Positions 1 through 11,259 of a stretch of DNA of 11,259 bases are shown here, piece after piece. The notes beneath the pieces were generated by a model. The model did not search any database, had not been told where the DNA came from, and was given only the letters and a program-made list of their open reading frames with translations. The position numbers and the translations under genes were made by a program. This DNA comes from a virus (lineage: Duplodnaviria > Heunggongvirae > Uroviricota > Caudoviricetes). Each line of letters starts with the position of its first letter. Position 1 is the stretch's first letter. The stretch lies in IMG/VR virus record IMGVR_UViG_648276652_000017. One strand, 5' to 3'.

Positions 1-1862
1 TCACCATGATTAATATAGGTAAACTGCGCATTCGCCGTTCCACTTCCGCTGGATGTTGTCGGTGTGGTTATGCGGATCGTCATCGCTGACTTTATCCCCA
101 TCACCTCAATGACAGCGCCGGCGAGATGAATATTTCCGCAGCCCGTATCCGTGATGATTTTATTATTACCGTAAGACCAGGAGCCCTTGCACATCCAGTA
201 TGGGTGGTTAAATGCGCCCTGAGAATCCAGCCACCCGATAAACTGTGCGGTCGTCCAGTCTCCTGTCGTTGTGCTTACGGCCCCACCGAAGGCACGGCAG
301 GCACCAATATTTTTCGTAAAGGTGTCTTTGTCGGGGACATCCGCACCGTTCTTATCTTTCTGCAGTCGTTTCTCAGCATTCTCACAGGCGGCTTTTACGG
401 CCTTTGGTGTTGCCGCCAGTGACTCGGACGTGCTGTTGGTCGCACTGCTGAGCTGGACTATCCCCTTTTTCGTCGTGCTCGCATCCTCAAGCGCCACGGC
501 AGACGCAATATCCTCCGCCCGTTTTGCCGCAGTCTCAGCGCGCGTTGCCGCGGATTCTGCCGTGCTTTTGCTCTGTGCTGCCGCTGTCGCACTGCCAGCT
601 GCCTCTGTCGCCTTCGCGGATGCCGTCGTGGCACTGCCCTGCGCCTCTGACGCCAGCCTTGCCGCCTCATCTTTTGAAGCTGACGCCGATGATGCTGATG
701 ACGCCGCCGAACTGGCGGACGATACGGCTGCCGTTTTTGAGGATTCTGCGCTGGTTTCCGACGCTTTCGCGTTCGTCTCGGATGTCCTCGCAGCGGAAGC
801 AGACCTCGCTGCTGCAGTGGCCTGTTCAGTGGCTTCGCCAGCCTTCGTTGTGGCTGCTGAAGCGGACGATGCGGCGCTTTCTGCCGATTTTCCGGCGGCG
901 GTGGCACTGGCTGAGGCCTCCTCCGCTTTAACTGACGCCTCACGGGACGATGATGCAGCGGCAGTTTCTGAGCCTGCTGCTGCGGAGGCACTCTGTTCCG
1001 CTGCCGTTTCAGAAGACCTGGCGTTCGTCTCAGACGTCTTTGCCGCCTTCGCGGAATTTCCTGCCGCCGTTGCCGAGGAAGCTGCGCTACCGGCGCTCGA
1101 GGCTGCGCTCGTTTCTGATGATTTTGCAGCCTCTTTTGAGGCCGCCGCATCCCTGGCTGACGTGGCAGCTTCTGACGCTTTCGAGGTCGCGGTGGATGCA
1201 GACGTGGCGGCTGATTGTTGTGACGCTGCCGCATTCGTTTCTGACGTTTTCGCGGCACCGGCACTGGTGGCCGCCGCGCTTTTTGAGGACTCTGCAGCGG
1301 CAGCACTTTTTGATGCCTCAGCGGCCTTTGCTGAGGCTGTTTCTGCGCCGGAAGATGCTTCCTGTGCTGACGTCGCAGCCTGTCCGGCGGACGTGCTGGC
1401 GGCGCGTGCTGAGCCTGCAGCATCAGTCGCATGGGTTGCCGCCTCACGGGCAGATGTTCCGGCATCGCCGGCGGATTTTTTCGCGGCTGCCGTGTTCTGT
1501 GCCACTGCGGACGCGTTACGCGCCACCTCTTCCACCATCAGTTCAAAACGGCGCAGAGCCTCCGGACGGGCATCATCCTCCGTCATGGCACCGAGAAAAT
1601 CATTCAGCGTACCGGGTCGGGAATCTTCATACACGGTGATGGTGCCGGCATGTGACGGCGGAAAACCGTCAACCAGCAGGATGACACCGTACTGGCCGTA
1701 CTCAACGTCCATACTGTAACGCCCGGCTTCATCCGGATTTTCTGAGGCCACCGTGTTCACCACCACCGTGGTACTGTTACGTTTTGCTTTCAGCTGAATG
1801 GTGCAGTTCTGTACCGGTTTACCTGCACCGTCTTTCAGCACGCCTGAAATCTTTACTGCCAT
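1..1862 (-). CDS. stf: Side tail fiber protein (lambda Stf/orf-401 family), 3'-partial; gene continues beyond window start
   Basis: Minus-strand ATG at 1862..1860. Hand translation begins MAVKISGVLKDGAGKPVQNCTIQLKAKRNSTTVVVNTVASE, the N-terminus I recall for lambda Stf. Centre is Ala/Ser/Thr-rich with KTSETNA-like repeats (e.g. SSETAAEQSASAAAGSETA around 960..1020). I checked by hand that this frame has no stop from 1862 down to position 3 (no TTA/CTA/TCA in plus frame 3). The plus ORFs 271..1719, 524..931, 950..1639 and minus ORF 458..1465 are out-of-frame shadows of this gene. Confidence 0.85.
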   Translation of the reverse strand, partial: MAVKISGVLKDGAGKPVQNCTIQLKAKRNSTTVVVNTVASENPDEAGRYSMDVEYGQYGVILLVDGFPPSHAGTITVYEDSRPGTLNDFLGAMTEDDARPEALRRFELMVEEVARNASAVAQNTAAAKKSAGDAGTSAREAATHATDAAGSARAASTSAGQAATSAQEASSGAETASAKAAEASKSAAAAESSKSAAATSAGAAKTSETNAAASQQSAATSASTATSKASEAATSARDAAASKEAAKSSETSAASSAGSAASSATAAGNSAKAAKTSETNARSSETAAEQSASAAAGSETAAASSSREASVKAEEASASATAAGKSAESAASSASAATTKAGEATEQATAAARSASAARTSETNAKASETSAESSKTAAVSSASSAASSASSASASKDEAARLASEAQGSATTASAKATEAAGSATAAAQSKSTAESAATRAETAAKRAEDIASAVALEDASTTKKGIVQLSSATNSTSESLAATPKAVKAACENAEKRLQKDKNGADVPDKDTFTKNIGACRAFGGAVSTTTGDWTTAQFIGWLDSQGAFNHPYWMCKGSWSYGNNKIITDTGCGNIHLAGAVIEVMGIKSAMTIRITTPTTSSGSGTANAQFTYINHG

Positions 1863-1873
1863 ATTCGTTCCAC

Positions 1874-1901
1874 AAATAAAAAAGGTGCCATTTCTGGCAC
1901 C
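1874..1901 (-). terminator. Putative intrinsic terminator between J and stf (7-bp GC-rich stem, 4-nt loop, T-tract on the minus strand)
   Basis: Plus 1884..1901 is ggtgcca-tttc-tggcacc. On the minus-strand transcript the hairpin GGUGCCA-GAAA-UGGCACC is followed directly by UUUUUUAUUU (complement of plus 1874..1883). It lies 3' of the J stop (1921..1923) and about 13 nt upstream of the stf ATG. Confidence 0.6.
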
Positions 1902-1920
1902 CGGTCTGGTTTCTGAACAT

Positions 1921-4900
1921 TCAGCTGATACTGATACCAGCTGTGGATTTCTTCATCACGACAACAAGAAGGTCACTGATACTGCTCGTTGGCGTCCAGT
2001 TATTAGCGCCATATGAAGAGACATTGAAAGTCAGGGTGACATGCCCGTGTCCTGCAGGCATATCAATGACTGATGAAAATACCCGACTGACATCCGTCGC
2101 AGGTTGGTGAAAGATTTCCTGTCCGTTCTTCAGTACCTGCAGCTTACAGGTTGAATACCAGTATGACTGTTGGTTGTTGCTGTTGAAGTTTTCATGCTTA
2201 CCACCGCGAAACAGAACGGGTGGAATCACTATCTGACGGTCAAAAGCCTGATCATCATACACAGTGACCGTTATCGTACCGCTGGCATAACTGCTGTTTC
2301 TCGGAAAGGCTTTTCCCACCGTTTTGACAATATCGCCTTCAATCTGGCTGGCAGACAGTTTTCCCAGAATCCGGCAGTTCTGGTTAATCGTGACGTTGTT
2401 GAGTGTTCCGGAGTTCGCATTTACATTACCGCTGATATCGGCATTTTTCGCCGTCAGCCGCCCGTCCGGCGTCAGGGAAAAGGCCGGAGGATTGCCGCCG
2501 CTGGTAATGGTGGGGGCCGTCAGGCGCTTCAGGAACACGTCGTTCATGAATATCTGATCGCCCTGACCAACAAACATCGGTTTTGTGTTGCCATTCGCAG
2601 GATTAACCATCGCAATCCTGTCCGCCGCCAGCAGCACCTGACTCTGCATGCCGTCAGGGGTGTTCTCAATACCGGCACCAATACCCGCGATATAAAGGCG
2701 TCCGTCCTGCATCTGCTGCAGCTTCACAGCCCACATGCTGTTCAGATTATTATTTGTATCAACCTGAACCTTCTGTATCTGCTGAATTGCCGCACTCTGG
2801 TCTTCCAGTTTCTTATTGACGGTCTGTGTGATTTCATTGCTGACATCCGTAATGGACGTCCTGATTTCAGCCAGATCAGGCGCCAGCTGACCGTTATCAA
2901 TCTGCGTCCACAGCTCCTGAGCCAGATGGGTTTTTCCTATCTCGCCTTTGAAAAAATCCAGATAGCCGGATGCATCATCACTCGGCTGACCAACAGCCTC
3001 CACGAATGCCGATTTGCCAACGGTGTTCACACTGCGGATATAAAAGTAATAATCATGGCCCGGCCTGATATTGATACTGGCGGCTATCCAGTACAGCGCC
3101 GTGCCAAGATAGCGTGCTGTGGTTTCAACCTGCCTGATATCCGCAATCCGCTTTTCCGAGAACCAGAACTCAAACTGTACCGTCGGATCATAAACCGCAA
3201 GATGCGGCGTGGCGGTTATCTGAAAATAGCCCGGCGTCAGCTCAATCCGCGACGGCGCTGCCGGTGCGGCAATCCGGAACGATACCGACGCCGGATCGCC
3301 CTGCTGCCCCCACGCATTTACTGCCCGGACTGTCAGCCTGTAGTTCCCCAGAGCCAGTTGTGTGAAGCGGTAAGTGGTTTCCGTCGTCCGGGCCGTGCTG
3401 ACCAGCCGCTCACTGCCGTCATCCGCTGCCACGGTCAGGCGAAGCATGAAACTCACGCCCTTCACCACCTTCGGCGTGTCCCAGCGGGCCAGTACCTGAT
3501 ACTCCCCGCTGTCTGCGGTGACTTCGGCAGTCAGGTGCTGCACTGCTGGCGGCGTGACACCATTCACCGTGCCGCTCTGGTCGCCGTCAAAGTGCGCCCC
3601 GTTATCCACGATAGCTTCTTTTTCCGGTACATGCTGCACGGCAGTGATGGCATACGTGCCGTCGTCGTTCTCACGGATACTCACGCAGCGGAACAGGCGC
3701 TGGCGCAGCGTCGGCAGCTTCAGCCCCCATACGCTGTATCCGGCAACGCCGTCAGGAACACGGCTCACTTTCACCTTCACGCCGTCGGTGACGGACTGAA
3801 CCTCCACGCTGACCGGATTACCACTTCCGTCAACCAGGCTTATCAGCGTGGTACCGGAGGATGGCAGCGTGATTTCACGGTCGAGCGTCAGCGTCCGGGT
3901 CTGGCTGTTTACCGCCAGCACGCGTCCGCCGGTGCGGATACCGGCATAGTCATCATCGCAGATTTCAATGACATCGCCCGGTACATGGCGAAGCCCTTCG
4001 GCACCCACGCTGAAGTCCACGGTCTGCGTTTCCAGCAGTTCTGTTTTAATCAGCCACAGCCCGGCGCGGTGTGCCTGCCCCCGGCTGGTACAGCCAAAAG
4101 CATCCATCTTCGTGACGTTACGACCGTAACGGGCAATGGCCTGCGTGTCCTCCACAAGCTCTGTCGCCGTCTCCCAGCCGTTATTCGGGTCAATCCAGTT
4201 CACCTCAACGGCATTATGGCGGTCCTTCAGGGCGCTGAAGCTGTAGCGGAACGGCGCGCCATCATCCGGCATCACCACATTACTGCGGTTATAGGTCCAC
4301 ACCTTATCCGACGGTCGGTCCTGCACGAACGTCAGCGTCTGCCCGTTCCATACCGGCATACAGCGCATCGCCGAGCAGAAATCACTGAGCACATCCCACG
4401 CCTTGCGCTGTGTGGTCAGGTACGCATTACAGGTGATGCGCGGCTCCGTGCCGCCAAAGCCGTCCGGCACTGACTGGTCGCAGTACTGGCCGATGACATA
4501 CAGCGCCCATTTGTCCACATCCGCCGCACCAAGACGTTTCCCCATGCCGTAGCGTGGATGGGTCAGCATATCCCACAGACACCAGGCCATGTTATTGCTG
4601 TATGCTGGCTTAAACGTTCCGTCCCAGATACCGCTGTATTGCCGAGTCTGCGGGTTATAGTTCGACGGCACCTGCAGAATACGCCCGCGCAGATGATAAT
4701 TACGGCTCACCTGCTGGCTGCCGAACTGCTCCGAATCCACCTGTACGCCGACCAGTGCCGTGTTCGGGTAGCACTGTTTCACATCGATGATTTCGGTGTA
4801 TGACGACCAGAGCGTTTTGTTCTGCAGCTGGTCTGTGGTGCTGTCCGGCGTCATCCTGCGCATCCGGATATTGAACGGGCGCGGCGGCAGGTTACCCACC

Positions 4901-5403
4901 ACCACCGATGCCAGATACTGCGAGGTGGTTTTGCCTTTAATGGTGATGTCTTTTTCCGTCACCCAGCCACCATTACGCTGTATCTGAACCAGCAGGCGGA
5001 CTTCCGACGGATTCCGGTCCCCCTTTGAGGTGGTTTCCACCAGTGCCTGCACACCGAAGGTAAAGCGCAGACGGTCGATGTTTGCCGACGTGATGGTCCT
5101 GGTAATCGGCGTGTCGTACTTCACTTCCGTACCCAGCACCGTCTCGGAGCCGGAGGATTCAAATCCCTCCGGCGGTGTCTGCTCCTGCTCACCGGCCCGG
5201 AACACCACCGTGACGCCGGATATATTGGTATTCCCCTCACTGTCCAGCACCGGCGTACTGTTCAGCAGCACGCTTTTTAATCCGTCCACCGGACCTTCAA
5301 CCGGCCCTTCGCTGATGGCATCGATCACACTCAGCAGCTGCGTGGACTTCAGGTTGTCCTTCGCTTCGCGCGGGGTATGCCCCTTACTGCTGCCTTTACC
5401 CAT
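1921..5403 (-). CDS. J: Tail tip attachment / host specificity protein J (central tail fiber), 1160 aa
   Basis: ORF track translation starts [54 protein letters not shown] and is collinear over most of its length with lambda J as I recall it (lambda J is 1132 aa). ATG at 5403..5401 and TGA at 1923..1921 confirmed from sequence. The C-terminal roughly 250 residues appear divergent from lambda J. Confidence 0.95.
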
Positions 5404-7454: not shown

Positions 7455-7787
7455 TCACCACTTCGTCAAACTGACACGAAAAATCGGTATAGGTGATATG
7501 TTCTGTCGCTGACCACGTTCGACACACCACTCTGATTTTTCTGTTAATACCCGGCGGGCGCCAAAAAAAGATTTATAGCCTTCATGCCGGGCTAAAAATT
7601 TTTCAAATGAATCACGTTCATTCGCCTCAACTTTGAAATCACAGGTGAAAACGCGCAGAGAATGATTAAGTCCATTTGGACTTCGTTGCTCATAACCATC
7701 GCCAAATCTTACAGTTTTTATCGATGGTTTATTTTCTGTTTTCATTCCATCCTCTGGTAACCAGTGAAATTCTTCCGTATTAGCCAC
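7455..7787 (-). CDS. M: Minor tail protein M (lambda gpM family, divergent), 110 aa
   Basis: Translation contains FHWLPEDGM...[12 protein letters not shown], resembling lambda gpM (FRWKVKPGM...KVRFGDGYSQR). The start codon at 7787..7785 is GTG, not ATG, and overlaps the H stop (minus strand GTGGCTAA, with TAA at 7782..7780). Similarity to lambda M extends upstream of the internal ATG at 7745, which favours the GTG start. The gene lies in A+T-rich DNA, unlike L. Confidence 0.8.
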
Positions 7788-10700
7788 TTAACATTCCCCC
7801 ATCACGTCGCATATTTAACAGATTGCCCTGCACCCGCTGATCAACCATCCCCATAAGTGCTTTTATTGCCTGAGGGCCAATCTCTCCATTCTGGCCGTCA
7901 TTTTGAATAGTGATTTGGTATACAGGGGCATAGGTAATATCTCCGCCTCCATTACCACTTTTACTATTAATAGCTCTGACACCAAGAGAACCATCGGAAG
8001 TTCGTGTTAATGGCATAATGGCTTCCGGTCCAGCCTCACCAAAAACACCAGCCCCTTTTGCAAAAGCAAAAAATTGCGGGGAATCATAAATACCGTTCGA
8101 ATACGTGCTCAATGACGGAGACTCATAAACACCGCCCTTTGCATTCGGAATAAATTTACTAATAGCACTCCCGATAGTTCCTAAAATCCCCCCAGAAGAA
8201 CTGTTACTAATGCTGTCGAAAATCCCAGTAATTGAAGCCTTTAATGCTATTCGACTAAGATCCGAAATCACGGAAGTAGCGAAAGAACGAAAATTTGCCT
8301 TGCCTGTCGTGACAAAATCACCCAGCGCATCGGTCATCCCATCAAACATCTGAGTCGTGGTTGATTTTATCTGCTCACTGATATCCTTAGTGTCATCCAG
8401 CCAGTTATTGAATCCCTGGGAGGCACCACTAACCCAGTCTCCTGCCTGAATATCGAGCTGCTCGTTTTTCTGTCTGACAATTTCTTTTTCCCGTTCCAGA
8501 GCATCATTCAGAGCCTGCATTTTCTCTTGAAAAACATGATCTGACATTCCACGGGATTTATCTGCATAGTCACGTTCAAGTTGCAGACGCTGATTGTTAT
8601 ATCCATGTTCAATCCGCAGTAATTCCTGCTGGCGTTGCTGATTTTTATCGCCAACCCCATAACCAGCAATCTGAATATCATACCCCTGCTGACGATTATC
8701 AATCGAAGCCTGCAATGAATCACGCCATGCTGTTATTTCGGCGGATTCCTTGATTAGCCTGTTATTTTTTTCAATCGCAACATTTTTCTCCATCAACGTG
8801 GTTATTTCTTCCCGGTGTAAGAGAAGCGATTTCTGATCCTGGGTTAATTTCGATGATGGTCGTGACTCTAGGTCGGCAATCCGCTGACGCCACTTAACCA
8901 GTTCCTGTTCAGAGGAACTTAATTTAACGGTCAACTCAGCTTGTGAACTTAGTAACGCATTCTGTTGATTCAGATGATCAATCATTCGTTGGGCTGCATC
9001 ATCAGAATAATCTTTCGCCTTTGGTTGCTTTGGATCTTTATAACGCTCATTTATTTGAGCGATAAGATTATTATATTCTTCCTTTGAATACTGATTCTTT
9101 AGCTTTTCCAGTTTTGCAAGTTCACTAGCTCTCTGCTGCTCCCGGGTCTGATATTGTTTTGAAAAGGCATCTGCTCTCTGTCTGAGTTCAATTCCTTCCT
9201 GTTGTCGCTTGTTGTAATCGTTTATTGATGAATTTAGTACGTCCTGAGCAATTTTTTCTGCTTGAAGTACGCCCAATTGCTGCTTTAATCGTGCCAGCCT
9301 TTTATTTTGAGCTCCGCCATCTCCAATGCCACCTAACCCGAAAACTCCGGATCGGGTATTTTTTTCTATTTCATCAATTTGACGGAGAACATCTGAGATT
9401 TTTTGATCAAGGGAGGCCTCACGGCCAATATCCAGCATGGAATCCCATGCCCATTTTGCGGAGTCTGCGACAGCTTTCCATGCAGTCTCAAGATAACCAA
9501 GATTTTCTTTAATCTGGTTGGTGCGCTGGATCATTGAGGATGAGTATTCTTCTGTCGCAATGCGGGCGGCCTCCTGCTGGTTCCCTTCATCCTGTAGCGC
9601 CTTAATCTGGTTATAAGTCGCAAGTGTCAGAAAATGGTACTGATCATTAAGTTTTGATATGGCACTGACAGGATCCTTTGCAATTTCATTGAAGTCATTA
9701 ACCAGTTGTTCGGTTGATATTCCTGTTACTTCGCTCGTTTTTACTATCGCTGTCGTCACTTGCTCCAGCGAACTGCTCGCTACCTTTCCCGAACGCACAA
9801 GCTGATTTAATACTGCCGCCGCAGCACCAGTTGTCGAATCAGCCGCATTCCCGGCACGTTGAGCTAAATCGCCCAATTGCCCGCTGGTTGTCCCCAACTG
9901 ATTTCCGGTAAGAATAAGAGATTTATTAAATTCGTCCTGCTCCTGAGAGCCTTTATAGTAAGCCAGTCCTAAGACCCCAACGGCTGCTGCGGCCAGGGTA
10001 AAAGGATTAATTAATCCCAGCACATAAGAACCTACCCCTTTGATCGCCGGGCCAATCCCACCGAACATATCTTTTAGCTGGCCGCCCTGCTGCATTAACA
10101 CCATAAATGGCGACTGACCAGTGGACAACCCAACAACAATATCCGTCATTTGTGCAGGCAACATGCGCATAGCAAAAGCCGTTTGTTTTGCCGACATTCC
10201 GGTTTTGCTTAATTGTGATTGAGTAACCTCAAGCTCACTCCGCATAGCACGAAGTTTTCCAGAAAGCTCCTCATACATTTCAGGAGAAAGCATCCCCTTA
10301 GCTTTTGCTTCATTGAGCTGTTTCTGTTGTTCTACCAGACGATTAAAAGCAGTTCCGACAGGATCAAGTTGAGCAATCAGACGTTGCAAAGCAACAACCT
10401 GTTCATCATGCGCTTTTGCTGCTTCTCGCTCTGCCTGAGCCTCTCCGGTAAGCTCTCGCCGTGTTTCCTGTATTTTTCGGCTATAATTCTCAAACTGAGA
10501 ACCATTTATTTTCCCGGATGCAAACGCAGCATTAAGTTCATCATGCTGTTGTTCAAGATTTCTTAGCGCCGCAGCCAGAGGGTCGATCTTGTCCAGCATT
10601 CTTTGAAAGGCCTGAGCCTGCGCTTCCTGCTGGGCGGCAGCAAGTTTTCCGGCCTTCTCGGCTTCTCTCTGCGCTTGCGCAACCCCGCTCAATTCCTCTG

Positions 10701-10923
10701 TGGTTTCATTAAGTTTACGGACAAGAAATTCATATTCTTCTTTATCAATAAGCCCTTTATCGAAAAATTTCTTTAATTCAGAATAGCGTCGACCGACAGT
10801 ATCAATTGCGGCACCAACTGGATCAATAGCTGCTTTTAATTTTGCGAGCGCGTTCTTCTCATCTTCTGTTGCCTTAGTCACTTTCCCTGCGCTATTTGCA
10901 GCAGTTTCCCCAGCCTGCGTCAT
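7780..10923 (-). CDS. H: Tail length tape measure protein (lambda gpH family), at least 1047 aa; 5' end probably displaced by the IS2 insertion
   Basis: Contains [41 protein letters not shown] (compare lambda [41 protein letters not shown]) and the C-terminal [16 protein letters not shown]...RRDGGMLSG block (compare lambda ...NNDGTNGQIGPAALKAV...MRDGGLFSG). Long coiled-coil-like, Q/E/K-rich centre. The reading frame stays open upstream of the ATG at 10923 up to and into the IS2 end, with no in-frame ATG/GTG/TTG and no Shine-Dalgarno before 10923. Confidence 0.9.
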
Positions 10924-11045: not shown

Positions 11046-11095
11046 TTTAAGTGATAGTCTTAATACTAGTTTTTAGACTAGTCATTGGAGAGCAG

Positions 11096-11259
11096 ATGAT
11101 TGATGTCTTAGGACCGGAGAAACGCAGACGGCGTACTACACAGGAAAAGATCGCTATTGTTCAGCAGAGTTTTGAACCGGGAATGACAGTCTCCCTTGTT
11201 GCCCGGCAACACGGTGTGGCAGCCAGCCAGTTATTTCTCTGGCGCAAGCAATACCAGGG
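11096..11259 (+). CDS. insC: IS2 transposase OrfA (InsC), 5'-partial (first 54 codons in window)
   Basis: ATG at 11096 preceded by GGAG 7 nt upstream. Translation matches the IS2 InsC N-terminus, including the helix-turn-helix region ([22 protein letters not shown]). Runs off the window end. Confidence 0.9.

Follow-up and report, generated by a model that had tools for sequence, protein, structure and literature searches.

Lambda-family J proteins and their receptors

Modular exchange of the J specificity region has been described before. In the accessible text of Maddamsetti et al. 2018 (PMC6646904), lambda J residues 960-1132 form a "specificity region" that behaves as an independently recombining module, and natural J homologues have four indel hot spots, at lambda positions 1012, 1048-1049, 1077-1078 and 1107. 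S1012, itself at a hot spot, is also critical for host range, and the gain of OmpF use depends critically on residue 1107. Indel variation outside the specificity region is mentioned in the same text and left uninterpreted. For lambda itself, a mechanism in which the J trimer opens has been drawn from structures of gpJ with LamB (PMC11101478).

Receptor use has been reported for several relatives. According to the accessible portions of the phage 21 receptor work, phage 21 is LamB-dependent and does not lyse a lamB deletion host before evolving a new receptor (10.1101/2023.04.13.536812; PMC11336670); a single J change, I1025T, adds OmpC use, and further changes add OmpF (PMC11336670). The A8 gpJ chimera of Eligo Bioscience, in which lambda J is fused at residue 964 to the end of a natural E. 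coli prophage J, gives OmpC-dependent DNA delivery into lamB-deleted cells, and the 1A2 chimera uses OmpC of EDL933 (PMC11338833). Structures of A8 gpJ are available for a closed state (9wca) and for an open state with OmpC of EDL933 (9wcb), whose OmpC chain was confirmed independently here; phages Turner and Chlobot are its natural equivalents.

Module composition of the window J

The window, that is, the whole 11,259-bp contig ADWU01000070.1 of assembly GCA_000179155.1, carries a lambda-type tail operon on the minus strand, in the order H-M-L-K-I, then J, then stf, as judged from gene order and the Pfam matches of the neighbours. J contains the six J-specific Pfam domains in canonical order, each over its curated cut-off: FNIII-A_GpJ (residues 86-207), Phage-tail_3 (330-498), Ig_J (610-714), Ig_J_second (716-818), Phage_Tail_Tip (872-1000) and Ig_GpJ_C (1030-1160). 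This is the gpJ family architecture and is shared with lambda J (P03749). The reading frame is unbroken and co-linear with phage 21 J, which rules out a chance or frameshift artefact. Its segments, named from the lambda cryo-EM work (PMC11101478) and the Pfam matches, are listed here together with the tape-measure gene.

7780-10923, minus strand: tape-measure gene, 1047 aa
1921..5403, minus strand: gene J, tip attachment protein / central tail fibre, from its open reading frame and translation (1160 aa plus stop codon)
2968..5403, minus strand: J residues 1-812, lambda-like hub and FNIII/Ig domains
2689..2967, minus strand: residues 813-905, divergent alpha-helical shaft segment of phage 21 type
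2812..2895, minus strand: about residues 837-864, 28-residue shaft insertion relative to lambda, from alignment gaps (predicted helical)
2326..2688, minus strand: residues 906-1026, beta-prism or "central straight fibre" (Pfam Phage_Tail_Tip), partly conserved
2464..2539, minus strand: J nucleotides 2865-2940, residues 955-980, lambda-type DNA patch within the 21-type distal region, from informative sites
1924..2325, minus strand: residues 1027-1160, Ig-like receptor-binding domain (RBD; Pfam Ig_GpJ_C) of phage 21 type, from sequence and AF2 fold

Over its whole length the protein is 84% identical to lambda J (J02459, 1132 aa; BLASTP). An initial annotation, made from the sequence alone, had described the proximal part of J as close to lambda and the C-terminal part as different, and alignment bore out both points: identity is 97.8% over residues 1-812 (794/812) versus 50.7% over residues 813-1160 (179/353, gaps counted, from a joint alignment of the window, lambda and phage 21 J), and the pairwise alignment with lambda J found the distal end not as conserved as the remainder. 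Both peptides it had quoted are present in J, the first at residues 820-839 (window 2887-2946) and the second at the end of the protein. The break itself had been placed too far downstream, near residue 900; divergence begins at about residue 813 (window ~2967), and the proposed range of 1921-2700 covers residues 902-1160, so that the most divergent piece, including the 28-aa insertion, lies outside it. The distal divergence is genuine and far beyond chance, and it is patchy, with 38 of 40 positions identical to lambda over residues 961-1000.

J of phage 21 (OL657228, CPT_21_21) has the same length as the window J, 1160 aa, with no indels between them and the same long shaft. The two proteins differ at 29 residues, four of which lie within the RBD: S1037 (G in phage 21), I1060 (V), H1099 (Q) and S1140 (T). 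At the DNA level, codons 1-812 of the window J are about equally close to both phages (identity 95.4% with lambda, 95.9% with phage 21), and the distal region is only ~92-95% identical to phage 21, the differences being mostly synonymous. For phage 21 J against lambda J, the accessible text of PMC11336670 states 94% nucleotide identity; our global alignment puts these two genes at 82.7% when gaps are counted and reaches 94.3% only for codons 1-812, and the published figure thus seems to describe the conserved part of J.

The shaft segment is 97.8% identical to those of phage 21 and VT1-Sakai, and 29-42% identical to those of lambda, 434, 1W and Turner. Single-sequence AF2 predicts helices at residues 811-822, 826-836 and 840-913, with pLDDT 88-93 for residues 851-890. 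The lambda shaft is shorter by 28 residues, and the placement of the corresponding insertion in the window J is uncertain by a few residues. Because 28 residues equal four heptads, the window J shaft is probably longer than that of lambda, by ~4 nm.

The beta-prism is 94.2% identical to that of phage 21 and 75% identical to that of lambda, and it forms the junction zone between J modules. I1025 (codon at 2329-2331) and V1026, the ancestral residues at the prism-RBD junction, are both kept; the numbering used in PMC11336670 for these two residues agrees with a 1160-aa J. Within the prism lies a stretch of DNA, found in the window J and not in phage 21 J, in which 14 informative sites in a row are lambda-type rather than 21-type. 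J nucleotides 2860-2919 are 100% identical to lambda DNA and 85% identical to phage 21, and because of this patch D955, R960, A974 and T984 equal the lambda residues. The patch sits in the conserved prism stretch that was used as a fusion point by the builders of A8 and 1A2.

Among the nine J proteins compared, the shaft and the RBD vary in type independently of each other. In 1W J the shaft is short and lambda-type and the RBD 21-type (97.8%), VT1-Sakai J pairs a long, 21-type shaft (97.8%) with a different RBD (62%), in Turner J a short shaft carries an A8-type RBD, and the J proteins of 434 and mEp460 have a short shaft with a third type of RBD. The VT1-Sakai/1A2-type J of Stx-converting prophages resembles the window J in its long shaft and in a prism that is 93% identical, and differs from it in predicted loops L1, L2 and L4 of the RBD. 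The window J is an intact lambda-family J in which the distal third consists of the phage 21 set of modules, namely the longer shaft, the beta-prism and the Ig-like RBD. The allele probably arose by module exchange inside J, and the lambda patch lies in a conserved prism segment where such exchanges take place. The case is not new in kind, given the modular exchange described in 2018; to the specificity region of that work it adds a second variable module that assorts separately, the shaft at residues 813-905.

Selection, abundance and prophage state

J is under strong purifying selection along its full length. Compared with phage 21, dN/dS ranges from 0.035 to 0.086 over the segments of J, and of the differences within the RBD, 21 are synonymous and 4 non-synonymous (dN/dS 0.047). 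The DNA of window 1921-2950 has matches in 4499 of 5426 complete E. coli genomes, with at least 80% query coverage in 1604, and in two complete genomes the distal region of J is 99.8-99.9% identical. A protein that stands for a cluster of 741 member sequences, P0001, has three differences from the window J in the last 170 residues and already carries S1037 and I1060. Its cluster and the wide spread in E. coli genomes mark the allele as common. At the level of sequence, then, the distal part of the window J is a known phage 21-type module that is very common in E. coli prophages. A match to the whole window above ~97% is absent among the complete E. coli genomes.

Downstream of J, window 1863-1920 holds only a 58-nt spacer, with no lom gene between J and stf. 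The spacer contains, on the coding strand, a GC-rich hairpin followed by a T-run and is terminator-like. Phage 21 is organised in the same way, likewise lacking lom at this point and having a terminator hairpin downstream of J, whereas lambda, 434, BP-4795, Turner, VT1-Sakai and mEp460 have lom at this position. The stf gene (1-1862, minus strand) is cut by the contig end, leaving 620 aa visible. The first ~120 aa of its product resemble phage 21 and lambda Stf and are followed by a long Ala/Ser/Thr/Glu-rich repeat region, which also yields a spurious 482-aa Ala-rich open reading frame on the plus strand (271-1719). The distal part (…KAACENAEKRLQKDKNGADVPDK…WMCKGSWSYGNNKII…) has no counterpart in phage 21 Stf and is presumably unlike lambda Stf too.

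At the other end of the contig, the tape-measure protein has 1047 aa, compared with 853 aa in lambda (PMC12617516); the tail would accordingly be about a fifth longer, if the gene is expressed. A 70-aa fragment of an IS3-family transposase (Pfam HTH_Tnp_1) lies at the contig end (window 11051-11259), with 127 nt between it and the downstream tape-measure start. The contig is homologous to other prophages only up to window ~11004, a point 81 nt upstream of the tape-measure gene that is occupied in lambda by gene T. This could mean that the insertion sequence displaced the G/T tail-chaperone genes, in which case the prophage is possibly defective, or else that the assembly broke at a repeated insertion sequence. 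E. coli NZ_CP035832 has an IS2 within the tail-tube gene, an arrangement unlike the junction seen in the window.

The transposase fragment, the late start of prophage homology at ~11004 and the truncation of stf at the opposite end would fit a J left over, without use, in a defective prophage, where its specificity would be irrelevant, or one that recognises some other surface protein. We regard this as very improbable: the J frame is intact and of full length with dN/dS between 0.035 and 0.086, the genes from H to stf are all open, and the insertion sequence is perhaps just an assembly break at a repeated element. Moreover, the receptors of characterised members of the window RBD cluster are the porins LamB, OmpC or OmpF, and nothing else.

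Probable porin specificity of the receptor-binding domain

The RBD matches Pfam Ig_GpJ_C with E = 5.6e-38. It is 97.0% identical to that of phage 21, 97.8% to 1W, 90% to BP-4795 and 80.6% to A8/Turner, and more distant from VT1-Sakai (62%), lambda (42-46%) and 434/mEp460 (39-44%). Searched by sequence against the PDB, the last 340 residues of J match A8 gpJ 713 (9wca, 9wcb; E = 1.8e-147) and lambda gpJ (8xcj, 8xck, 8iyk; E = 6e-98, or about 1e-97). An AF2 model of residues 991-1160 (pLDDT 83.8) has the fold of the lambda gpJ RBD; in Foldseek it retrieves 9wca/9wcb (TMq 0.77, 82% identity, E = 1e-21) and 8xck/8xcj (TMq 0.71, 49% identity, E = 2.5e-17 to 8xck). The structure search proposed in the initial annotation thus returned a LamB-binding relative, lambda, together with an OmpC-binding one, A8.

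Four bottom loops of the RBD were predicted from the strand alternation in the AF2 model, and the indel hot spots of PMC6646904 indicate the same four. They also correspond to the columns of highest entropy among 30 homologues.

2281..2304, minus strand: predicted loop L1, residues 1034-1041 (PRNSSYAS), an AF2 loop of high entropy holding S1037
2164..2184, minus strand: predicted loop L2, residues 1074-1080 (NSNNQQS), from AF2 model and entropy, with a 5-aa insertion relative to lambda
2086..2109, minus strand: predicted loop L3 and its approach, residues 1099-1106 (HQPATDVS), from AF2 model and entropy, holding H1099
1972..2013, minus strand: predicted loop L4, residues 1131-1144, from AF2 model and entropy, holding S1140

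Lambda J, although alike in RBD fold and probably in receptor, differs from the window J by indels in predicted L1, L2 and L4, and these coincide with three of the hot spots (1012, 1048-1049 and close to 1107). Predicted L1 has a 4-aa deletion spanning lambda S1012, predicted L2 corresponds to the hot spot at 1048-1049, predicted L3 is near that at 1077-1078, and N1135 in predicted L4 aligns with lambda D1107.

The window J most likely binds LamB, the receptor of lambda, by analogy with phage 21; we put the probability at roughly 0.7. The low dN/dS relative to the LamB-using phage 21 points to conserved function, and confidence is held down by S1037, H1099 and S1140, which are in or beside the predicted receptor loops. 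The initial annotation was right that the distal domain is a module other than that of lambda, and its suggestion that the outer-membrane receptor differs finds little support, the allele being that of a LamB user. Lambda and phage 21 share LamB with RBDs that are only ~47% identical, and divergence alone is therefore no predictor of a receptor change. The laboratory phage 21 that was tested differs from GenBank OL657228 by G18903A, which the accessible text of the phage 21 receptor work gives only as a nucleotide change; we mapped it to E1071K, in the RBD just N-terminal of predicted L2. The window J has E1071, like the GenBank sequence.

The RBD cluster of the window J spans both LamB users and OmpC users, and an RBD with OmpC as its receptor, either by itself or alongside LamB, with S1037, H1099 and S1140 tipping specificity, has to be weighed. 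A8 gpJ, the best structural match, belongs to this cluster, has no indels relative to the window RBD and shares an identical L2 and C-terminal strand, and it is the protein for which OmpC-dependent delivery and a structure with OmpC (9wcb) are available. It differs from the window J at 26 RBD positions, mostly in L1, L3 and adjacent strands, and its shaft and prism are lambda-type. The 1A2 chimera is likewise an OmpC user; its C-terminus appears to encode a VT1-Sakai-type RBD (~62-66% identical to that of the window), as read from a machine-read supplement sequence that contains errors. One change, I1025T, suffices to give phage 21 OmpC use, and the differences between the window J and phage 21 fall at high-entropy loop positions. 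However, at the 30 positions that differ between phage 21 and A8 over residues 992-1160, the window J has the phage 21 residue in 27 cases, the A8 residue in one and a residue of neither in two. The one A8-like residue, I1060, is in a predicted beta-strand and not in a loop, and S1037 and H1099 match neither protein. I1025 is unaltered, dN/dS against phage 21 is low, and S1037 and I1060 are already present in P0001, the representative of the 741-member cluster. On this balance, we consider OmpC binding by the window RBD unlikely.

The window RBD is also not of the 434 type, having other indels at 39-44% identity; phage 434 uses OmpC. A search of the accessible literature for receptor data on other carriers of 21-type RBDs (1W/3W, Lambda_ev, the Lambda_2E9 series, PhiR63_2 and ev017) found none. 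The accessible part of a receptor-screen preprint (10.64898/2026.04.02.716166) concerns Drexlerviridae-type GpJ and holds no receptor data on lambda-like 21-type J.

Within a LamB-binding reading, the window J may still have a finer host-range difference or latent OmpC use. It is decidedly doubtful that the allele is a natural intermediate in which the loop residues S1037, H1099 and S1140, together with the prism patch near the trimer junction, shift fine specificity. Such an intermediate would be moving toward a divergent LamB of the host lineage or toward natural dual use of LamB and OmpC, and would then be a natural counterpart of the laboratory-evolved receptor expansions of phage 21.

Judging from the solved structures of lambda and A8 gpJ, the window J would form a trimer at the tail tip. 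Each of its three RBDs would insert four bottom loops into the opening of a porin trimer in the outer membrane, most likely LamB. Binding would cause the bases of the RBDs to spread and the prism to twist, after which the shaft would flip, the tail tip open and the DNA be ejected.

Beyond annotation, the finding has little import in itself, and the divergence of an RBD from textbook lambda is not to be read as a receptor change: the lambda and phage 21 RBDs, only ~47% identical, both serve LamB use, and A8, 81% identical to the window RBD, uses OmpC. Host-range prediction from prophages should take the RBD allele cluster and its four loops as the working unit; the window J falls in the phage 21 cluster. 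The map of modules obtained here, comprising shaft, prism junction and RBD, may help builders of chimeric J proteins for delivery vectors.
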